Assembly (NCBI GenBank): GCA_034669905.1
Contig: JAXMOL010000029.1
Coordinates: 26,010-90,009, forward strand
Reading direction: 5' to 3'
Length of the DNA stretch: 64,000 nt
Origin: Candidatus Hydrogenedentota bacterium
GTDB taxonomy: Bacteria > Hydrogenedentota > Hydrogenedentia > Hydrogenedentales > JAEUWI01
This document shows positions 9,214 through 43,545 of the stretch, in pieces (positions within the stretch are counted from its first letter, which is position 1; each line of letters begins with the position of its first letter). A model generated the notes under the pieces. It was given only the letters and a program-made list of their open reading frames with translations. It did no database searches and was not told the origin of the DNA. The translations under genes and the position numbers were made by a program.

Positions 9214-10656
<1,443 letters not shown>

Positions 10657-10814
10657 AGCTTCCCCTTTGCTTTGATTTTGATACGCGGTGAATGTTTCAT
10701 GGTAGGTAGTCTAATAGCAATCACGCAAGTTTTGCCTGGGCGTTTGTGTTGGTGGTGTGGCCGGGGATGGAAAACCCAGGGGCGGCCTCCTGTTCTTGGT
10801 GGTAACTCAAGGCG

Positions 10815-10863
10815 CGAAGTGGCGCTTTGGTGACTGCATTTCCAAGTGGCGCTTGGCAACGAG
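10815..10863. repeat. degenerate REP-like palindromic element
   Basis: AAGTGGCGCTT occurs twice (10817, 10844); the second lies in the palindrome CCAAG-TGGCG-CTTGG followed by CAACGAG. Confidence 0.4.
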
Positions 10864-11033
10864 GGTGGCAGGGACGTTCTGCCGCCGCAAGGTGATGGGG
10901 TGGGATGTTTGCCGGCAGCCTTTTTGTAGGAGCTGGTGTCGCCGGAGTGTCCTTCGGGCGGCTGCACGTCCCGGTGGGGCGTTGCAGAGGTGGCGGCTTT
11001 TCGGGATGGGGCTTGTGAGGGAGTCGTGGGGCG

Positions 11034-11475
11034 TCGAGCCTACGGCCACCGGGACAGGAACGCGCGTTAGCGTGGTGGCGGTGATGCAATGGGTGCGGGT
11101 TGGCGCGACGCGACCGCGACTCCGCAGGGCTCTTGGGCGCGATACCGTCCCTTTGGTGCGCTTTCGGGTGGGAAGGGGTCGCCCCTATGGAGCGCCGACG
11201 GCCTGTCGGCATGGGTGCCAATGGCACCTCATCGGAGTCCGCTCTTGGAGCCGTTGGGACCCCTTCGACCTTTTTGACATTGCTAATAAGTCATAGGGAT
11301 ACTATAGAAGTAATTCGGTCATGGGCAGGGTTGAGTGATATAGCGGCGAGCGACAAAGGCCTGGTTAAAACGGCAGGAGCGATACCATGTGGGGTACGAA
11401 TATCTGGGGTGCTTGGACTGATGGCTGTAATCCATATAGAAGAAGAGGGATAAGGGTGACGGTCTCTGGTTGTTT
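11034..11475 (+). repeat. ~440 bp direct repeat, copy 1
   Basis: Colinear with 14662-15102; near-identical over the first ~280 bp, more diverged afterwards. Confidence 0.95.
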
Positions 11476-11585
11476 CAACTTCCTCGACCAGTTGGACGGG
11501 CTGTCGGACCGTGTGCTACGCCCTAAAAAGCCGGGCCGCCCCAAGAAGCGTGCGGGGGAAAGGGTAGAATTACGTAGTCTGTCCC
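11468..11585 (+). pseudogene. probable 3' remnant and right end of an HUH/Y1 (IS200-like/RAYT-like) transposase
   Basis: Translates FLDQLDGLSDRVLRPKKPGRPKK, resembling Y1 transposase C-termini from memory; followed by AATTACGTAGTCTGTCCC. Confidence 0.5.
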
Positions 11586-11590
11586 TTGGT

Positions 11591-13246
11591 TCTTTGAATT
11601 ATCAACATACAGATTCCAGCCGAGTGGTCGTGTCGGTGGCGGGCGGCGATGCGCCCCTGGAATTGAACCGGGGGACGAGTTCGCCCACCAGACGCTATAT
11701 TACGGTGCGGGGAGGGACGGCCTTGTCGCTGACGGCCGAGTCGAACAATCCAAGTGGTACCGGCTTGCGGGTCTATGGCGAGTATTCGCAAGCGTCGACC
11801 AACGCCCTGTCGAGTTCTTCCGTGATGACCATTGCGGCACCTTATGTGGCGATCAGTGGTGGCGCGGCACCCTACGGCACGGGCACGGTAATGGGTACGA
11901 TGGCGAACGGCCAGGCGGTGGTGGCCATGGGGGATTTGGAAATTCCCATTACGATGGACCGCCTCGTCTACCCGCTGCCGAACCCGACCACGGCGCCCTG
12001 GACGAAATGGACCGAATTCCAGTGGCTTCCTGACCCGGGGTTCTACGTCTATTCGGTAACCAGTCCCGATGCCACCGACCAAAACCCCAATCCGACCGGC
12101 AGCGCCGAAACGCGGCCCATGAAAATCCTGACCTTGAATGACGCGGAGTGTCTGGATGATTGTGATCTGAACGAACACGGAAACGCCAAGCTCATCAACG
12201 CCAAGCGCTACTACATGGGGCCCCGAGCGAATAACCCCAATGGGGAGTTGGTGGGCTTACGCCCGGTGACACACCCGGGCCATGTCTTCAAGGGCTTTGA
12301 CATCTCCGGTACGGACAATGTCTGGCTCGCCGAAGATGAGGAGGTGGACGATTTCTACAGTCTGTCCGATATAACTGGTCCGGCCACAAAGAACGGGGAT
12401 GGACTGTACATGTGCGAGGAAACGGAGCCCCTGTATATTGAGATGTCTGAGAGTGTTAGTGTGACGCCGGTGTTTGAGGGGCCACCAGAGCTTTACTGGT
12501 TTTGCAGGGCGCTGTGTTTGCCACAGAAACGAACTACCATTGGAATTGGTGAAGAAGTTTCCGTTCATGCACTCGGCAGCGATGGTCAGATCTACGGACA
12601 GTCTGTACGGTGGGATATTGAGGGCATCGGTGCCAAGTCGATCTCGCCGTCTTACGGTAAGAATGCAATTTTTACGGCGGCAAAAGTTGTCGGTCCAGCA
12701 TCGGCAACCGTTTTCGCCTATGATGGTGATTGCGTTGTTGCTGAATTGCATTTTACGGTGCTCAGCCCGACAGGAGAAGCAACCGTACATGATTCCGATG
12801 ACAGCCCATGGCAGAGTGGGAGTGAGGCTCTCAGTGCGAGGACCATATTCGAAGTGACGGTTCTTCCCAATACGGTATGTTTCGGGAATATCCAAATTGA
12901 TGAAGAAGATGATGAGGTCTCTAGTCCTTGGCCCAATGAAGGCATGGGTGATTGGTCTACGTCGTCTGGCTCAACGTTTGATGTAGAGTGCGACAACACG
13001 TTCTTGGACTATTTCACAGAAGACTTGGCGCTCAAGTGGAATTTCTTTATAGATGATACTGACAGTTATGTGGATTTCAATGCCCTATTCAGTTTTCGCA
13101 ATAGATTTCCAACTGATTCCGGTACTTGGGTCTACTACGCGGACGTCGAAACTTGGGTAGAATATAAACCTAGTTTTTACTTCATGACCCGACACAAACG
13201 AAACGGTGTTTCAGGAGATTGGGTGGGGCCATGGCGTTATTGGTGA
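11591..13246 (+). pseudogene. start-less C-terminal module of a large extracellular (polymorphic toxin-like) protein
   Basis: The 11387 ORF begins in repeat/transposase DNA; coding-like sequence starts right after the end motif; no signal peptide; beta-repeat-like segments (HPGHVFKGF, MSESVSVTPVF), then RTTIGIGEEV and a more AT-rich acidic tail. Confidence 0.6.
11594..11752 (+). repeat. 159 bp coding repeat, copy A
   Basis: 154/159 identical to 14439-14597; encodes LNYQHTDS.RVVVSVAGGDAPLELNRGTSSPTRRYITVRGGTALSLTAESNNP. Confidence 0.95.
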
Positions 13247-13310
13247 TAGGATCTAATAATGAAAACCAAGGGGCGCGCGCAAGTGACAAGCCGCGAAGAA
13301 AGGTGTTGCT

Positions 13311-14168
13311 GTGAAATATAATTCGATGCTCCTCGTTAGAGTGTTCATTTTGGTTGGGGTGATGCCAAGCTTGGCGTTTGCTGATGCACTCCAAGATGAG
13401 CTGGATGCGTTGCATACAGAGATCGTTCAGCACGAGGGAGCCGTCGGCGAAGGGGAGCTGAAATATCTTGAGTTGGTAAAGGAATACAATAAGCCGGAAC
13501 AAGTCGGTCGTATATACGCCGGGTTGGCAGATATGTTTTTCGATTTAGGGTCGGCCGATACGGATTCCGTAAAAAAATACGCTCGATTGGCTTTGACTTA
13601 TCCGTTGGATCCATTAATATCAATGAAAATGTATTTAATTCTTGGCGAAGTGTTGGGTCGTCACGATGAAGGCCGGAATATGCCTGCGGGTGCGTTGACC
13701 AATAGTACTATTGCCTACATGAAGGGGCTCAGGGTCGGGATAGACCAAAAACTGCCCGATGACCTTCGCGAACCTTTAAAGACCTTCGCACTCCGCGGGA
13801 GCGGGCCTGACTACGAGCGGCTACAACGGGAAAACGAGGAGCGGCGAGAGGCTCGAAGAGAATGGTCCCGAATCAAGGAGTTATTGGATATGCGGGACAC
13901 GTTAGAGAGGCGACTATTTTTTTCTTATTGTGAAACTGAGCGATCGGAGAGGGAGTTGAAGGAGTTGGCGATTCAGTATCTGGCGGACGAATTTGCAACA
14001 ACAAGACTTCTTGCCCGATTCAAGAAAGCAAAGGATGAACTTGCCGGCATAGCGATTGAGGGCCCGTCTGTGCTGTATCCGCACGCGCCTGCCGATTTTC
14101 GTGAGAGAATGGGCCTGGGCCCCGTCTTGGAGTCGACCAAGAGCGAGGTAGTCCGCCAGAAAGAGTGA
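13311..14168 (+). CDS. secreted helical hypothetical protein (candidate partner/immunity), 285 aa
   Basis: GTG start with upstream AAGGTG; signal peptide (..PSLAFA-DA); directly follows the module ORF; stop abuts a left-end motif. Confidence 0.75.
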   Translation: MKYNSMLLVRVFILVGVMPSLAFADALQDELDALHTEIVQHEGAVGEGELKYLELVKEYNKPEQVGRIYAGLADMFFDLGSADTDSVKKYARLALTYPLDPLISMKMYLILGEVLGRHDEGRNMPAGALTNSTIAYMKGLRVGIDQKLPDDLREPLKTFALRGSGPDYERLQRENEERREARREWSRIKELLDMRDTLERRLFFSYCETERSERELKELAIQYLADEFATTRLLARFKKAKDELAGIAIEGPSVLYPHAPADFRERMGLGPVLESTKSEVVRQKE

Positions 14169-14172
14169 CGGT

Positions 14173-14229
14173 AAACCCAGGAACACCCAGGGACGGACTA
14201 CTATTTTGACAGCGATTGAGTGTGCGAGT
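14173..14229 (+). repeat. left-end motif L1 (AACACCCAGGGACGGACTAC..GACAGCGATTGAG)
   Basis: Related to 14599-14660 and 16328-16378; inverted relative to GTAGTCTGTCCCTTGG at 11574-11589 (14/16). Confidence 0.75.
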
Positions 14230-14231
14230 CG

Positions 14232-14597
14232 GTAGGCGATGTTCATTACTGGCATGACCTTGTGGTAAAGGCCTCATTTCCGGTGGGTACGGAGGTGCAT
14301 GTGAAGGCGACGGATGAGGACTGGTTTTTGAGTTGGATGGCGAAGGGTTCGCTGCTCCATGGGAGTCCCGTTGCCGAGGATAGTTTCATGCTGACGCAGG
14401 ATACCACGGTGATTGGCCTGGCGAAGGGTGCTCAGAGCTTGAATTATCAACATACGGATTCCAATCGGGTGGTCGTGTCGGTGGCGGGCGGCGATGCGCC
14501 CCTGGAGTTGAACCGGGGGACGAGTTCGCCCACCAGACGCTATATTACGGTGCGGGGAGGGACGGCCTTGTCGCTGACGGCCGAGTCGAACAATCCA
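14232..14597 (+). pseudogene. internal fragment of the same large protein gene, ending in repeat copy B
   Basis: Open frame (..FPVGTEVHVKATDEDWFLSW..SLNYQHTD..SNNP) without a credible start, truncated at left-end motif L2. Confidence 0.7.
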
Positions 14598-14598
14598 G

Positions 14599-14786
14599 AA
14601 AACTTAGAGAAAACTTAGGGACGGACTACCGTTTCTTGGCAGCGACTGAGGGTGTGAGGCCTCGAGCCTACGGCCACCGGGACAGGAACGCGCGTCGGCG
14701 TGGCGGAGGTGATGCGACGGGTGCGGGTTGGCGCGACGCGACCGCGACTACCCAGGGCATTTGGGCGCGATACCGTCCCTTGGGTG
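14599..14786. mobile_element. short non-autonomous element bounded by GGGACGG.. / ..CCGTCCC ends
   Basis: GAAAACTTAGGGACGGACTAC ... GCGATACCGTCCCTTGGGTG; a sister element lies at 16328-16477. Confidence 0.55.
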
Positions 14787-15102
14787 CGCTTTCGGGTGGG
14801 TAGGAGTCACCCCTATGGAGCGCCGACGGCCCGTCGGCATGGGTGCCAATGGCACCTCATCGGAGTCCGCTCTTGGAGCCGTTGGGACCCCTTCGACCTT
14901 TTTGACATGGGTAATAAGTCATAGGGATACTATAGAAGTAATTCACGGGCGACGGCGCTCGTGTTGCATTGCGGCAAGCGACAGAGGCTTTGGGGAAACG
15001 GCAGGAGCAAATCCATGTGGGCTTCGAGTGCCAGGGGTGCCTGGACTGATGGCGCTACTCCATGCAGGAAAGAGGGGTTTTGGTGACTGTCTCTAGTCGG
15101 TT
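14662..15102 (+). repeat. ~440 bp direct repeat, copy 2
   Basis: Colinear with 11034-11475; ends ~27 bp before the ATG at 15129. Confidence 0.95.
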
Positions 15103-15128
15103 CCTGAGTATCGAGAGAGGAAATCAAC

Positions 15129-16247
15129 ATGAAAAGAGTGCCTATCACAAGACTTCTTATTCTCTTGGTGTTTACCACTCCGGCATTTGGAGTTGCCGAC
15201 TCTGTCGGCACGGAAGAGGAGCACGTCTATGTGGTTTCCGCCCAAGATTATAATGGTCCACTCTATCGTCTAAAGATGGCCCTCGATGCAAAATTGGAAC
15301 CTGTGGGTCACTTTCCACCGCTTCAGTATTCTCGGTCCTCAATAGCCTTCAGGCCTGGTCACGACGAGGTGTACGAATTCAAAGGCAATCGAATCGGTGT
15401 ACTCAATTTGAATTCGGGGCGTACGCGGGAAGTCGTTGTTGACGCTGTTAAATACTTCGGAAGAGCTACCGTTTTTTCTGAAGAGGGCGACTACCTTTAC
15501 ACCAATGCAATCGAGCCTGACGGGAAGGGGTATGTCGGTGTAGTCATCGACCCAGAGAAGGGTACGGTACTAAAGCGGATTCAAGAAACTAGAAATTTCT
15601 TTGATACGGCTTGTTTTCTTGTTGGCGAACAATCGCTTCTCTACGGAAGCCGTCGCGGTTTGGTAAATGTGCCTATCACAGGTGACCGTGGTGAGTCGGT
15701 TATTTCTTACTTCACCACCACCAGCAATTTCATACCCTCGGATATTTCTATTCGCGGCGGTACTGTCTACGTTCTTGCTCACGGGCAGAAGGAGAATGCA
15801 GGGTATACCGAGCTGTTGAGAAGAACTGAAAACGAACTGGAGTTCTTGGGTAAGATGCGTGGCGAACCCTTCGGAAACAACGGTGTGAAGGGGGATTGGT
15901 ATTCCTTCGAATGGGAAACCGATACGGTGAACTGTCTCGGGGACGTGAAACCTTCTTACAGAGCCTCGTTGATGGAGCAATTGGGGAAAGAGCGGTTCAA
16001 GAAGTATACAGGCGATGAGAAGACTGGGTACAAGTATGTACTTGACGATCAGTACGTGTACTTGGATGATATCCATTTTACGGATGCCCATCTCGCACCA
16101 AGTGGTAATTTCAGTGTTTTCGTTCACGATGGCGGAGAACGGCGCCCAAGCTTTGTCGTTCTGAGAGACAACAAGAACGGGAAGTGGGGCAGAATCCAAT
16201 GTCTTTCAAAGATTGGTCCAGGAATGACGAACATCGTTTTCGATTAG
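15129..16247 (+). CDS. secreted beta-rich hypothetical protein (orphan partner/immunity candidate), 372 aa
   Basis: GAGAGG RBS; signal peptide (..TTPAFG-VA); beta-propeller-like composition; more AT-rich than the flanks by eye. Confidence 0.8.
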   Translation: MKRVPITRLLILLVFTTPAFGVADSVGTEEEHVYVVSAQDYNGPLYRLKMALDAKLEPVGHFPPLQYSRSSIAFRPGHDEVYEFKGNRIGVLNLNSGRTREVVVDAVKYFGRATVFSEEGDYLYTNAIEPDGKGYVGVVIDPEKGTVLKRIQETRNFFDTACFLVGEQSLLYGSRRGLVNVPITGDRGESVISYFTTTSNFIPSDISIRGGTVYVLAHGQKENAGYTELLRRTENELEFLGKMRGEPFGNNGVKGDWYSFEWETDTVNCLGDVKPSYRASLMEQLGKERFKKYTGDEKTGYKYVLDDQYVYLDDIHFTDAHLAPSGNFSVFVHDGGERRPSFVVLRDNKNGKWGRIQCLSKIGPGMTNIVFD

Positions 16248-16264
16248 GGGGAAGGGAAGGAAAA

Positions 16265-16327
16265 GGCGGCGATGCGCCCCTGGAGCTGAACCGGGGATAG
16301 GTTCGTTGACCAGACGCTATATCACGG
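16265..16327 (+). repeat. degenerate third copy (C) of the coding repeat
   Basis: GGCGGCGATGCGCCCCTGGAGCTGAACCGGGG..ACCAGACGCTATATCACGG matches 11642-11705 with substitutions and a 1 bp deletion. Confidence 0.85.
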
Positions 16328-16477
16328 AAAACCCAGGGGCGGACTGCTGTTTCTTGGCAGCGACTGAATCCGCGAGGTGGCGTATTGCAATGGGCTACGA
16401 TATCTACGCTTCCCAAACGATCTCCCAGAGGGCCTATGGAGCTCGGACGCCCGACGCGATACTGTCCCTTGGGTGTT
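16328..16477. mobile_element. short non-autonomous element, sister of 14599-14786
   Basis: AAAACCCAGGGGCGGACTGCTGTTTCTTGGCAGCGACTGA ... GCGATACTGTCCCTTGGGTGTT. Confidence 0.55.
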
Positions 16478-16610
16478 GAAGCAGCTGCACGTGTGCCTTT
16501 CTTTGATGGCGCTCAAGGCGGCGCGTTTTCCAAAGCGGCATGGCGGGGGGGAGGTAGGCCTGCGCGGAACATTGCCGTTCGCGCGCTTCGAGGCCCGCAA
16601 GTTCACCTCC

Positions 16611-17795
16611 TCAACGGCTGTGAGTTTTGCCGTTGTGATGCTGCTCGTAGTGCTGCCGCAGTAAGTCCTTGCCGTAGTCATTGCCATTGGGCGTTCGGAC
16701 CACGGCGTGGATGTGGTCTCGGGATGGTTCGCGGGAGCGGAAGGGGGCCACGCGATTCTGGTGGTCGAATTCGATGAGGATGACCGGGCTATGAATGCGA
16801 TAGTAAAAGACGCTGTCTTCCCGGGTACTTCCAACCCACGCGAAATAGGTGCGATCGAGGTGCTGCTTCACTTCCTCCATTTTAATGGCGGCGTGCCCCT
16901 CCTTCATGTTGCCGACATATAGGGCGATGACGTCGAGCAGGCGTTGCGTTTGCGCTTCGTCGAGATTGGCGCATTCCAGGCCGGTGTAGTCGAGATCCAG
17001 GTTGTCCTCGTAGGCCTGGGCGAGTGCGTTGTTGCCTGCTTTCACTTCCGAAATGGTCGCCTGTTTCTGTTGGTCTTCGTTGAGGGACTGCATAAACTGC
17101 AAGCCCTTGTTCTGTTCATCTTGCAGGATAATCGTGCCCTTGAATTTCCCCGACGTGGCATGGACCGGTTCGCTGCCGACGAAGACGGGCGACATGACGA
17201 CCTGATCGCCCAGCACGAAGTAGTTGATGACAAGGTGATGGCCGTCGAGCTGCCAGCCCCAGGGTTCGGTGGGTGATGGTTCCCCCATGATCGTGATCCA
17301 ATACAACCATTCGCCATACTCATCGTATTTCTCGGTCAGTTCGGCCAGGGTGCCGTTGAGTTTCATGATGTCCTGCGTGAGCTTGAGCCCTTTTGCGCTC
17401 AGGCTGGCACGGAGCAGCCCAAAGGCGCGTCCCCGTTGTTGTTCATCCATTTCGTCAAACCCAACGCCCTGGCGTTTGGGGCGGTGACGATTGTCCCACT
17501 TCCTCCACTCGGAATCATCCACCGGAAAGATGGTCTGCTCCCGCTGGGATTCCTTCAATCCCGCAAGAAAATCCTCGGCCGCGCTGACCACGGGCGCGGT
17601 AGTCACCCCCGTGGATTTGATTCTAAACAAGCCGGTTTCGATTTTTCCGTCGGCCGCCACGCCACGGAACGGTTGTTGCAGGGAATCATCGCCCCCGCCA
17701 CGGGGTCCCCGTTGGGGTGGTTGGGAAACGGCGGTGATGCCAATCAACAAAACAGCGGCCAATCCCGCACAAAGGGCTACATGTTTTCTTTTCAT
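16611..17795 (-). CDS. DUF3500 family secreted protein
   Basis: Signal peptide from [48 protein letters not shown] motifs. Confidence 0.88.
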
Positions 17796-17898
17796 TGGAA
17801 AATCCGTTCTCCGGTGTTTTTCTTGGTAAGTAGGGTTTTCGCCGTCATAACATGGGGCCTGAAAGCGGCGTATGGAGGCGCAACAGAAAACCATTTCT

Positions 17899-17971
17899 AT
17901 GTGCTCTTTGCGTTCTTTGAGGTTACAAACAAGGAGCTTTTCAACCACAAAGAACGCAAAGAACACAAAGA
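17899..17971. repeat. outward-facing pair of 9-nt-period repeats
   Basis: GTGCTCTTTGCGTTCTTTGAGGTT and AACCACAAAGAACGCAAAGAACACAAAG are near reverse complements. Confidence 0.65.
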
Positions 17972-18027
17972 TGGGCTGCCGTGTGGTCTTAAAAAGCGGG
18001 TCTGCAAAATAGAGACCGCCCACAATT

Positions 18028-42777: not shown

Positions 42778-43545
42778 ATGACCGGAGATATGATCGACAC
42801 GGATACTGCAGCGCCGGGTGAAGTGCCTTACGATGGCGAAGCGCACACGGCGGTGGCCCCCGTTATCGAGGCCAGTAACTTGGTGAAGTCCTATGTGCTC
42901 GGGGATACGGAAGTGCGGGCCCTGGATGGCGTCTCGCTGGCAATCGGGCGTGGTGAGAAGGTTTCCATCACGGGCCCGTCTGGCAGCGGCAAATCGACCC
43001 TCATGAATATCCTGGGGTGCCTGGGCCCGCCGGACTCGGGTTCGTACATTCTGGCGGGGGAGGCGGTGGCCCATCTCTCCGGTAACCGCCTGGCTGAGAT
43101 CCGCAACCGCTACATCGGCTTTGTATTTCAGACCTTTAATCTGTTGCCCCGAATGAGCGCCCTGGAAAACGTGGAATTGCCGTTGCTCTATGGCGGTGCG
43201 CGCGATGCCCGTGCACGGGCGGCTGAGGCCCTCAAGGCGGTCGGCCTGGCGGACCGGATGAATCATGAGTCCAACCAGCTCTCGGGGGGGCAGCGCCAGC
43301 GCGTAGCCATTGCGCGGGCCATCGCCACCGATCCCTCCGTGCTGTTGGCAGACGAGCCGACGGGTAACCTCGACACACGCACCGGCGAGGAGATTATGGA
43401 ATTCTTCGATTCGCTCCATGCCCAGGGGCGGACCATCATCATGGTTACCCATGACCCGGAGGTGGCGCGGCAATGTGACCGGCAAATTCACATACGCGAC
43501 GGACAGATCGTTCCGGGCGAATCCTATGCCCCGGAAGGAGGCTGA
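42778..43545 (+). CDS. ABC transporter ATP-binding protein (MacB/LolD type)
   Basis: GPSGSGKST, LSGGQRQRVAIAR, ADEPTGNLD, VTHD. Confidence 0.95.
   Translation: MTGDMIDTDTAAPGEVPYDGEAHTAVAPVIEASNLVKSYVLGDTEVRALDGVSLAIGRGEKVSITGPSGSGKSTLMNILGCLGPPDSGSYILAGEAVAHLSGNRLAEIRNRYIGFVFQTFNLLPRMSALENVELPLLYGGARDARARAAEALKAVGLADRMNHESNQLSGGQRQRVAIARAIATDPSVLLADEPTGNLDTRTGEEIMEFFDSLHAQGRTIIMVTHDPEVARQCDRQIHIRDGQIVPGESYAPEGG

Follow-up and report, generated by a model that had tools for sequence, protein, structure and literature searches.

The inverted motifs that recur between positions 10769 and 16475 of the window, i.e., the whole 64,000-nt stretch of DNA that was analysed, are very probably the terminal inverted repeats (TIRs) of small elements of the TIRtron/TIRYT kind, which fall into two related families centred on a RAYT-like Y1/HUH transposase. 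The 5.7-kb region would be a transposase-less remnant cluster that separates low-GC orphan genes, and the enzyme is predicted to nick single-stranded DNA at the outer repeat edge and to join it again.

Two families of terminal inverted repeats

The original prediction had described three left and four right ends, and all seven motifs were found where it had placed them, far above chance. Using a degenerate 16-mer of the left-end core with up to two mismatches, we obtained six matches in the window against a mean of 1.04 in 100 shuffles (largest value 3). Five of these fall within 10775-16347; the sixth, at 43421 with two mismatches, is probably a chance match. The right-end 20-mer gave three matches in the window versus 0.02 expected. 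The claim that all motifs lie within 5.4 kb held inside the window and failed genome-wide, both motif classes occurring elsewhere: the exact class-1 core 13 times on five contigs (reversed-pattern control, 0) and the class-2 13-mer 33 times. Matches to the class-1 core were present in 15 of the 41 genomes searched, with at most 18 per genome and 0-1 per strand for the control.

The left and right ends had been taken as one pair system, which had to be abandoned, three of the four right ends belonging to a second mini-element family. Class 1 comprises the three left ends and the right end at 11574, which are one repeat of about 21 nt in opposite orientations; its inner 13 nt, AGGGACRGACTAC, form a conserved core, whereas the outer 8 nt or so vary more. 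Two left-type copies had been missed, at 10769-10794 (degenerate) and 13260-13285 (weak); together with those at 14173, 14598 and 16326 they make five left-oriented copies, all on the + strand. The remaining three right ends (GCGATACYGTCCC) define class 2, the right TIR of a separate mini element of about 105 nt, with left partners at 11050-11066 and 14678-14694. This element shares the GGGACRG core and is present in the window as two full copies and one half copy; by eye, 25 of 47 genomic matches to its right TIR have a left partner about 90 nt upstream, and in copy A the ends pair when folded. The region, next to an oxidoreductase ORF (9214-10656), contains the following features.

10769-10794, + strand: degenerate class-1 TIR of left type, opening mini-element #1; core with 2 mismatches; reference copy of repeat family D3 (16326-16351 is 92% identical to it)
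11026-11316, +: repeat D1 copy A, containing a class-2 mini element and downstream hairpin-rich modules; identity 93% to 14654-14944, and 69-71% to C22 and to sequence flanking the C30 Y1 gene on its 3′ side
11050-11151, +: class-2 mini element copy A; left TIR 11050-11066, right TIR 11139-11151 (the predicted 11139 end)
11340-11476, +: repeat D4 copy A, ending in a TIR-like internal site (11458-11476); 78% identical to 14968-15063; probably a degenerate 3′ portion of the Y1 gene, from a weak frame similarity, by eye, to the Y1 C-terminus
11465-11557, +: 3′ remnant (last ~31 codons) of a Y1 (TIRYT-like) transposase gene, found by tblastn, adjoining the 11574 repeat
11574-11592, -: class-1 TIR with exact core match, right end of the Y1-gene remnant (the predicted 11574 end)
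11594-13246, +: cargo gene 1 (ORF list; ORF open from 11387 onward), its own 5′ part missing, beginning with repeat D2 copy A (11594-11752)
13311-14168, +: cargo gene 2 (ORF list), 285 aa, signal-peptide-like N-terminus by eye
14173-14219, +: class-1 TIR (core match) whose outer part is tandemly duplicated over ~10 nt, plus a short inner stub
14220-14618, +: ORF containing the missing 5′ part of a gene-1-type gene and D2 copy B (14439-14597), cut off by the next TIR
14598-15104, +: mini-element #2, made of TIR, inner module, D1 copy B, D4 copy B and TIR-like internal end
14598-14629, +: class-1 TIR of mini-element #2, with an 11-nt tandem duplication
14678-14779: class-2 mini element within D1 copy B (the predicted right end at 14767)
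15085-15104: TIR-like internal end of mini-element #2
15129-16247, +: cargo gene 3 (ORF list), 372 aa, signal-peptide-like N-terminus by eye
16265-16327, +: partial D2 copy C; truncated piece of a gene that ends at the TIR outer edge (families D5 and D6)
16326-16475, +: terminal unit adjoining a DUF3500 gene; degenerate class-1 TIR (16326-16347), inner module, class-2 right TIR (16456-16475)

The predicted proximity of the ends to truncation points was borne out, three left-type copies of the window lying directly beside the stop of a gene or a truncated piece of one. D2 copy A begins immediately after the motif at 11574-11592, copy B and partial copy C terminate at the outer edge of the motifs at 14598 and 16326, so that gene fragments end exactly at a TIR outer edge, and the stop codon of gene 13311-14168 lies 4 nt ahead of the 14173 motif. 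D2 copy B is 97% identical at the DNA level, and the ORF that holds it matches residues 69-122 of gene 1 with 98% identity over 54 aa. The tandem duplications of about 10-11 nt were confirmed at 14173-14192 and 14598-14619, and duplication outside GGGAC was seen again at the ends of other elements, both here and in related genomes; it may be due to repeated cleavage or insertion, as had been proposed.

The cognate Y1 transposase element

The class-1 repeat is the TIR of an element of about 790 bp with a single RAYT-like Y1/HUH transposase gene. In complete copies the inverted repeats enclose a promoter-like leader and one Y1 gene of 229-232 aa, whose stop codon sits within the right repeat. 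All six inverted motif pairs about 745-910 bp apart, from five other genomes, enclose an intact ORF of 229-232 aa; these ORFs share 64-94% mutual identity, and the one scanned against Pfam matched Y1_Tnp with 45.8 bits (cut-off 23). One relative carries several near-identical copies of the gene, in an IS-like manner. The only near-full cognate Y1 gene of the genome under study, on C11, is flanked by inverted class-1 repeats but broken. The remnant in the window aligned in tblastn with the C-terminal part of the C11 gene (31 aa, 64.5% identity, E 4.6e-6), and the 11574 TIR occupies the position with respect to the gene that it has in C11 and the six intact copies. A genome-wide association with Y1 genes, whose absence would have counted as refutation according to the original prediction, was also found: tblastn placed a Y1-gene fragment no more than 50 nt from six of the 13 exact class-1 cores, and two further cores carry a Y1-gene remnant judged by eye. 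An inverted repeat with a score of at least 16 flanks 53 of 67 related loci from other phyla (scored without a shuffle control), and by eye all but two of the 53 show a GG(G/T)AC-type core.

The transposase motifs NHxH, WQ and YVExN(P) agree with those given for TnpAY1 subclass 2.1 (= TIRYT) in the available part of PMC6006769, and the signature is Y..NP versus the Y...Q of IS200 (Table 1 therein). Four resident Y1 paralogs are 45-54% identical to the cognate gene (tblastn), the C30 paralog reaching 72 bits with the NCBIfam RAYT model, below its 80-bit cut-off; because the cognate copy here is broken, any activity today would depend on one of these four. On folding, no stable local hairpin was detected in the class-1 repeats (z -0.4 to -1.1), so that the hairpin-recognition mode of REP/IS608 is not simply transferable; gene-less doublets of the repeat can pair as long hairpins. 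Target duplication was absent, by eye, at all five judgeable ends (L008, L009, L010 and two C31 mini elements), which fits an HUH rather than a DDE enzyme.

Deletion derivatives comprise mini elements of about 235 nt on C31 and of 100-350 nt in other genomes, and by eye the class-1 repeat adjoins no fewer than four kinds of inner module. The copies in left orientation, inner modules included, would be derivatives of this kind, movable in trans by a Y1 enzyme predicted to cleave at these ends. Where gene fragments end at the outer edge, and where the outer repeat shows stuttered partial duplications, cleavage and rejoining may have left their scars, or deletions may have begun at the element end. 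Within the window the elements follow one another as right repeat, D2, remainder of the gene, gene 2, TIR stub, 5′ part of a gene, D2 and TIR; such an order might stem from a circular copy integrated by recombination within D2 or from a tandem duplication followed by deletions from the repeats.

Cargo replacement and alternative explanations

The cargo has a GC content of 45-51% versus 59% for the genome. The Pfam cut-off was reached by none of the four cargo ORFs of the window and by none of nine cargo ORFs from four loci of this genome (G000) and relatives, and PADLOC gave no match for the window or the other scanned cargo ORFs. Genes 1 and 2 have no family in Pfam, NCBIfam or PADLOC, gene 1 having one relative besides itself among 8000 candidates scored. 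Gene 3 is possibly a beta-propeller, a lead from atlas feature matches to YncE/WD40-like clusters (scores 0.91-0.93); its PepSY match lay below the Pfam threshold. By GC content and lack of families, the cargo looks foreign.

Among close relatives, orthologous loci were present in the nearest one only, the sister species G007, whose assembly is fragmented at repeats. Its DUF3500 gene is 93% identical, and it keeps the terminal unit at the orthologous place (81%) and one inter-gene unit; a unit homologous to mini-element #2 lies there between different genes. The G007 slots carry genes of 453 and 371 aa, unrelated to those of the window (BLASTP E 3.0 and 0.86). At the C11 locus, the 91% homology between the two genomes begins exactly at the repeat and the outer side holds different genes. 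TIR units are thus retained at two orthologous sites with unrelated genes. The bracketing of orphan genes by remnants, differing between sister species, likely reflects cutting and rejoining at the ends, and the replacement between conserved units would proceed by recombination at these units, Y1-mediated or homologous. Homologous recombination between dispersed repeat copies would explain cargo replacement equally well, and we counted this against our explanation, as we did the broken cognate gene, the lack of a stable hairpin, the cargo kept in a related strain and the downstream mismatch in G005. The related strain, from another study, has retained these three cargo genes with about 97% identity, so the array is not in rapid flux; in G005, two intact element copies (88% nt identity) are followed by unrelated DNA, and gene and cargo therefore did not move there as a single unit. 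The sole candidate deletion joint between two left-type repeats (14206 to 16354) was seen on one contig at depth 3.6, with a shorter side of 27 nt, which falls short of the reliability guide of the tool.

It is possible, though less likely, that the repeats are passive relics of old Y1-element insertions, the substrate of no enzyme now, and that homologous or illegitimate recombination and replication slippage between copies produced the rearrangements. The broken cognate gene, the degenerate copies at 10769 and 16326, the unchanged cargo of the related strain and inter-gene units of 150-500 nt, sufficient for homologous recombination, are all consistent with this. However, the breakpoints of two independent gene fragments and the inter-genome homology lie at the outer edge and not inside the long units, stuttered partial copies of the outer repeat occur at many ends in three genomes, and the same genus has intact, recently duplicated copies, all of which speaks against passive repeats.

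We consider it unlikely that Y1-driven, integron-like cassettes are at work, in which direct left-oriented repeats would be nick-and-rejoin sites and the intervening DNA would form a single-stranded circle inserted beside a resident repeat, giving arrays at fixed slots. The five left-type copies of the window share one strand, orthologous resident repeats are conserved with differing cargo on their outer side, and a solo left-oriented repeat lies 1.6-2.6 kb downstream of the right repeat at five of five genus loci with a Y1 gene or 3′ remnant (G000 C11, the window, G007:C2, G005:C23 and G005:C429). This pattern is, however, trivially expected if elements cluster, no circles or junction reads were found, the conserved inter-gene units are whole mini elements for which homologous exchange suffices, arrays are short elsewhere, and the available parts of the cited TIRYT/TnpAY1 literature hold no enzymology for subclass 2.1.

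True terminal inverted repeats and many short derivatives would also suit MITEs of a DDE transposase, with the Y1 gene as passenger and the repeats as cut-and-paste ends, but this is highly improbable given the lack of target duplications at the five ends judged by eye, a ~790-bp unit with space for the Y1 gene alone, and same-core inverted repeats flanking homologous Y1 genes across phyla. The probability of a classical integron, or of an attC cluster without integrase, is next to nil: there are co-oriented genes, conserved units between them and imperfect inverted ends, but the integron-integrase model reached at best 86.7 bits against a cut-off of 265 in this 95.7%-complete genome, the Y1-associated repeats already account for the units, and the neighbour at 9214-10656 is the oxidoreductase gene.

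Comparison with known systems

Judged by sequence and by the available parts of the literature, the described system that comes nearest is TIRtron/TIRYT (Di Nocera et al., 2013, PMC3733652), with which TnpAY1 subclass 2.1 has been equated (Quentin et al., 2018, PMC6006769) and to which a bracketed mapping in Table 1 of the latter links the Group 1 RAYTs of Bertels (PMC5581495). Common to both, as far as these sources extend, are a RAYT-like Y1 gene encoding about 230 aa, a C-terminal tail included, flanking by TIRs instead of REP hairpins, moderately abundant repeats occurring as singles, pairs and clusters, and a patchy taxon distribution. The core here, AGGGACAG, agrees with the published GGGGWSAS at seven of eight positions. 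In contrast, the nearest named relatives of the host genomes here are Hydrogenedentota MAGs, and the frequent stuttered outer-repeat duplications, the single repeat with several inner modules and the units bounding slots with differing orphan genes are absent from the available portions of the published TIRtron and subclass 2.1 accounts.

REPtrons combine a RAYT with REP/REPIN sequences (Nunvar, 2010; Bertels and Rainey, 2011). From what is accessible of these accounts, they likewise have a Y1 gene between inverted cognate repeats, gene-less doublets able to form long hairpins and a repeat inner end reading GTAG, whereas the repeat here is non-palindromic, has 13 cores and not hundreds, and accompanies IS-like near-identical gene copies in one relative; the C30 paralog also scores below the RAYT cut-off (72 versus 80 bits). 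An IS200/IS605-like nature was rejected: the Y1/HUH catalytic core and the lack of target duplication are shared, but the protein has about 230 aa versus about 150, Y..NP in place of Y...Q and true TIRs in place of subterminal hairpins, with no stable local hairpin and no tnpB among the C11-locus ORFs. An integron identity was likewise rejected, the units being Y1-associated mini elements and an integron integrase missing, although cassette arrays resemble this locus in their co-oriented genes of no assigned function, in conserved units with inverted ends between them and in a fixed chromosomal place whose content varies between relatives.

In picocyanobacteria, TnpA_REP is co-located with expanded, variable arrays of prochlorosin genes, and a role in diversifying recombination has been proposed from genome structure alone, according to the available text (bioRxiv 10.1101/2020.03.09.984088). 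Although the Y1 subclass and the repeats described there are others, both cases place a RAYT-family gene beside an expanded and variable gene set.

Two families of terminal repeats

All seven end motifs of the original prediction were present on reading 10800-16800. The left-end core, searched as a degenerate 16-mer with up to two mismatches, occurred at six sites in the 64-kb window, five of them within 10775-16347, against a mean of 1.04 and a maximum of 3 in 100 dinucleotide-preserving shuffles, and the right-end 20-mer was found at three sites against 0.02 expected. The repeat finder added two left-type copies that had been overlooked, a degenerate one at 10769 and a weak one at 13260; all five left-type copies (10769, 13260, 14173, 14598, 16326) lie on the plus strand. 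It also bore out the predicted fit of the other repeats to the motifs: copy A of the repeat family D2 (11594-11752) directly follows the 11574-11592 motif, and copy B (14439-14597) and partial copy C (16265-16327) end at the starts of the 14598 and 16326 motifs. Gene 13311-14168 does stop 4 nt short of the 14173 motif, and the tandem duplications (~10-11 nt) outside GGGAC at 14173 and 14598 are real. Two further repeat families were returned, D1 (11026-11316 and 14654-14944, 93% identity) and D4.

What did not hold was the reading of left and right ends as one pair system. Reverse-complementing the right end at 11574 yields the three left ends; these four motifs are copies of one repeat, class 1 (inner core AGGGACRGACTAC), the ~21-nt terminal inverted repeat (TIR) of a ~790-bp element carrying a Y1 transposase gene. 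The three remaining right ends (GCGATACYGTCCC) are distinct from these and form class 2, the right TIR of a separate ~105-nt mini element. Since the two classes are different families with a common core, GGGACRG, the predicted left-right pairs mix ends of both. The attribution of the motifs to a Y1 transposase was of the right kind, with the details mistaken: the motifs fall into two families, with true inverted repeats of the TIRtron type (a RAYT-like Y1 gene with TIRs) and not IS200/IS605 ends. The parts were read in the following order.

Order of parts between the two bounding genes
9214-10656, minus strand: GFO/IDH/MocA oxidoreductase gene, bounding the motif stretch on one side
10769-11592: first mini-element, with a degenerate left repeat, D1 containing a class-2 mini element, D4, a gene remnant and the right repeat
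Cargo A: gene 1 (11594-13246) without its 5′ part, then gene 2 (13311-14168)
14173-14219: left repeat and short stub
Cargo B: the 5′ part, absent from gene 1, of a gene-1-type gene, and D2
14598-15104: second mini-element, with left repeat, inner module, D1 and D4, and a TIR-like internal site at its end
Cargo C: gene 3 (15129-16247) and a D2 scrap
16326-16475: terminal unit, adjoining the DUF3500 gene
16611-18023, minus strand: DUF3500 gene, bounding the stretch on the other side

The end of D4 resembles the right repeat and, as judged by eye, the equivalent place in the intact gene encodes a conserved T-G-R-P-C-G stretch; this internal pseudo-end may have acted as an alternative right end. 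The middle of the region reads right repeat, D2, rest of gene 1, gene 2, stub, 5′ part of the gene, D2, left repeat. Such an order could have arisen if a circle with the whole two-gene unit had integrated via recombination inside a resident D2 scrap, or by tandem duplication followed by trimming through deletions that start at repeats, and the present evidence does not tell the two origins apart.

In the genome, the exact class-2 13-mer occurs 33 times, and the 16-mer with one mismatch allowed gave 47 sites with full flanks, 25 of which have, by eye, an inverted partner ~90 nt upstream. The ends of the resulting ~105-nt mini element pair, and the folding of these elements is no better than that of shuffles. 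Two of the window copies have their partners at 11050-11066 and 14678-14694, and the copy at 16456 lacks one. Same-strand arrays of class 2, spaced by 330-630 bp, were seen on contigs C12 (32985, 33349), C15 (61365, 61698), C22 (44263, 44640, 45209), C30 (96, 731, 1195) and C91 (2779, 3358). Each arrayed mini element leads into a conserved two-hairpin module, beyond which the sequence varies, and what is repeated may be small cassettes in an array or a non-coding unit.

Rfam gave no family for the motif region at the gathering threshold or at E up to 5, and three weak matches there, to eukaryotic or archaeal families, were taken as chance. A short GC hairpin with GGACGTT in its loop lies at 10867-10883, and the same motif follows the stop codon of an intact paralogous Y1 gene on C30, the 3′ flank of which shows 69% identity to 10867-11229 (query 108-469). 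Elsewhere in the window, we observed a tRNA gene at 166-239 (Rfam, 61.6 bits) and, at 17896-17971, a 34-nt inverted repeat (85% complementary, 8-nt loop) overlapping the 5′ end of the DUF3500 ORF. Contigs from all four public runs break or diverge at 17925/17943, which suggests another dispersed repeat.

Class-1 repeats terminate a Y1-gene element and derivatives of it

The 13-nt class-1 core was searched in 41 genomes, this one and 40 relatives, with the reversed pattern as control. It was present in 15 of them, in up to 18 copies, versus 0-1 per strand for the control, and its distribution within the genus is patchy (two of the eight other members). Six inverted core pairs ~745-910 bp apart were fetched from five genomes, and every one encloses an intact ORF of 229-232 aa that is preceded by a promoter-like leader and has its stop codon TAG inside the right repeat. 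The six proteins show 64-94% identity to the first of the set, and the only one scanned, from locus L006, matched Pfam Y1_Tnp at 45.8 bits (cut-off 23). All six complete copies agree in the inner 13 nt of the repeat; the outer ~8 nt vary among genomes and are inverted-repeated within each element. No target duplication was seen by eye at the five ends that could be judged. In the genus member G005, two complete copies share 88% nucleotide identity over 818 nt and their homology stops at the repeats, so the ~790-bp unit behaves as an insertion sequence.

The genome under study contains 15 Y1_Tnp matches. One, C11:135715-135987, starts 44 nt after a class-1 repeat, and the gene to which it belongs ends 13 nt before an inverted class-1 repeat. 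This cognate gene is broken: the stretch between W-Q-G and the Y motif has been swapped for ~86 nt, giving a stop. The segment responsible for the break (2485-2571 of the fetched locus L001, C11:135984-136070) is bounded by inverted ends of its own, with a GGGAC-type core, and is a further mini-element family; a piece in G005:C514 matches it at 91% identity, and similar pieces come after solo repeats in G005. In the window, translation of 11465-11557 gave the last ~31 codons of such a gene, reading into the 11574 repeat (tblastn against the C11 gene, 64.5% identity, E 4.6e-6). Another remnant, on C3, retains the first 30 codons, and on C31 the inverted repeats of two elements of ~235 nt enclose what is left of the gene, its first ~18 and last ~26 codons. 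Of 13 exact class-1 cores in the genome, six lie within 50 nt of a Y1-gene fragment detected by tblastn and two more carry a remnant by eye; the other five are solo and joined to other inner sequences. The ends of the C31 mini element pair (z -2.3), as those of any inverted repeat must. The repeats are the ends of the Y1-gene element and of its derivatives; junctions with unrelated DNA sit at the outer edge of the repeat, and partial copies of the outer repeat accumulate at many ends.

Four ~150-aa IS200-type Y1 genes of a separate subclass were also seen (C23:18846-19298, C23:578-1108, C34 and C37); the GC-rich palindromes on their flanks are different ones and are found repeatedly in the genome.

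Scanning one genome per species for the pattern gave 597 encoded relatives, of which the best 80 were taken (79 loci); the closest two among these show 67-71% identity and come from MAGs labelled Hydrogenedentes/Hydrogenedentota. Leaving out 11 loci with the match too near the locus end, 68 of the 79 entered a flank survey and 67 were scored for an ungapped inverted repeat between 250 nt upstream and ~200 nt downstream of the gene. As a raw count, 53 of 67 loci, also from other phyla, had a repeat scoring at least 16, and all but two of the 53 show a GG(G/T)AC or GGACAG core by eye. A chance exact 16-nt match between windows of this size is very unlikely.

Cargo genes and their replacement between the repeats

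The cargo has a GC content of 45-51% compared to 59% for the genome. None of its four ORFs in the window reached a Pfam cut-off or belonged to an NCBIfam or PADLOC family, and none of nine cargo ORFs from other loci reached a Pfam cut-off or matched PADLOC. Two sub-threshold PepSY matches were set aside, and for the protein of gene 3 (372 aa) the Atlas hints at a beta-propeller, no more than a lead. Among 8000 candidates scored, gene 1 had one relative, P0002, with 70% identity over residues 78-295, a coverage that gives no N-terminal test of the idea of a split gene.

Compared with 11594-13243, P0002 is near-identical over ~117 residues and then wholly divergent in its C-terminal half, a mosaic pattern in which the N-part is conserved and the C-part varies. 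ORFs beside other class-1 repeat clusters (C31:54597-55913, C3:166206-168212 and C24:99306-100436) form a paralogous family with common N-terminal parts (43-87% identity) and differing remainders.

The DUF3500 gene has an ortholog (E up to 1e-60) in G007 alone among the eight other genus genomes, with 93% DNA and 94% protein identity, so that the cargo comparison rests on one relative. G007 keeps the terminal unit at 81% and has a second left repeat upstream of it, with the same inner module and a D4-like end. The genes between the two units (453 aa and 371 aa) differ from those of the window, with no DNA similarity and BLASTP E values of 0.86 and 3.0. At the C11 locus, the 91% homology between this genome and G007 starts exactly at a left-oriented repeat; on the outer side this genome has two minus-strand genes and G007 one 464-aa plus-strand gene, and the G007 repeat shows a stuttered duplication. 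The repeat is absent from three more distant genus members (G008, G005 and G003), whose neighbouring genes differ too, so an exact empty site is not definable there. Five loci of the genus contain a Y1 gene or the 3′ remnant of one, and every one of them has a solo left-oriented repeat 1.6-2.6 kb downstream of the right repeat.

The junctions point to breakage at the outer edge of the repeat. The Y1 enzyme would recognize the conserved core and nick single-stranded DNA at or near that edge, and direct or inverted repeat copies would then permit excision, deletion and rejoining. As an alternative, homologous recombination between units of 150-500 nt would suffice to replace the cargo, and active participation of the enzyme in gene exchange is a hypothesis. 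We consider improbable a further form of the enzymatic reading, an integrase-free, integron-like system in which direct solo TIRs would be Y1/HUH nick-and-rejoin sites, inter-repeat DNA would be captured as a single-stranded circle and deposited beside resident repeats, and orphan secreted-protein genes would be swapped at fixed chromosomal slots.

Activity of the element in this genome at present is disfavoured by the broken cognate gene, by two degenerate repeats and by the retained cargo of a related strain from another study, which has the same three cargo genes at ~97% identity (e.g., 46 differences in a 1479-nt contig). Contigs of four public runs were compared with the window. Further D1 copies are the simplest explanation of the joints 11065-11133, 14696-14811 and 11074-14812. 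A joint going back from 16394 to 14663 was rejected as a circle junction because it reproduces the longer inner module of G007, and support for a 14206 to 16354 joint, a candidate deletion between two left repeats, was too weak to count.

The locus and its relatives supply a compact system: a sister genome encodes the enzyme intact (229 aa), the 21-nt repeat is defined and deletion derivatives occur naturally. The cargo slots, stuttered ends and module swapping make the element family a variant worth testing. If the enzyme cuts at the outer edge, the family would be a route for single-strand transposases to capture and exchange host genes, and the clustering of orphan genes in islands of this kind would be accounted for; otherwise, this is an ordinary graveyard of small elements.

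Comparison with known systems

The integron integrase model TIGR02249 scored at best 86.7 bits in the genome (cut-off 265; none of nine matches above it). IS200/IS605 elements, with a short TnpA, a Y...Q motif, subterminal hairpins, no TIRs and often tnpB, differ from the element described here, which encodes 229-232 aa with a Y..NP motif and has TIRs but no local hairpin.

The repeats of REP/REPIN-RAYT systems are short palindromes. The single repeats here are no palindromes and gain no stability over shuffles when folded (-2.7 to -3.8 kcal/mol, z -1.1 to +0.6), and the lack of a stable hairpin in single class-1 repeats argues against applying the REP or IS608 model directly. The GT[AG]G foot found at the 5′ of REPs has its counterpart, GTAG, at the inner end of the repeat. 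Against the NCBIfam model for REP-associated tyrosine transposases, the C30 paralog scored 72 bits, below the cut-off of 80, and the two halves of the broken C11 copy 34 and 24.5 bits.

TIRtrons or TIRYTs were described as RAYT-like genes with long terminal inverted repeats, whose families are moderately abundant, occur as singles, dimers or clusters and have the common motif GGGGWSAS (Di Nocera et al., 2013; PMC3733652). Quentin et al. (2018; PMC6006769) placed 20 of 26 TIRYTs in TnpAY1 subclass 2.1, characterized by NHVH, W[EQ] and YIELNP motifs, a median length of 238 aa and a tail resembling an HTH, and their account of this subclass states that REP hairpins were not found for it. Table 1 of that study makes TIRtrons/TIRYTs the second-largest TnpAY1 subclass (14.9% of strains) and maps subclass 2.1 to Group 1 of Bertels et al. 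(2017; PMC5581495), which has the widest distribution of the groups and modest counts of flanking 16-mers. The sections of this literature on TIRtrons and TIRYTs report no enzymology of subclass 2.1, and neither these sections nor literature searches on RAYTs and TIRtrons gave an account of cargo slots lying between repeats of this type; a related idea is the association of TnpA_REP with prochlorosin (bioRxiv 10.1101/2020.03.09.984088).

In an alignment of seven proteins, N59, H60, H62, W99, Q100, Y119, V120, E121 and N123 are invariant, and the motifs NHIH, WQ and YVE(M/L/N)N(P) fit those listed for subclass 2.1 in Table 1 of PMC6006769. The expected HTH-like tail (Bac_DnaA_C, HTH_23, HTH_28) was not detected; a ~100-aa tail is present, in which Pfam at E up to 0.01 gave nothing besides Y1_Tnp, and the tail of this subgroup may be of the heterogeneous kind known from 2.1.2. 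As in TIRtrons, terminal inverted repeats flank the gene in all six complete copies of relatives and in the C11 copy, and the right repeat of the window adjoins a 3′ remnant of the gene. The class-1 core, AGGGACAG or AGGGACGG, agrees with GGGG[AT][CG]A[CG] at 7 or 6 of 8 positions, and GGGGAC was seen at many related loci. The element family belongs to the TIRtron type, which is known but little studied.
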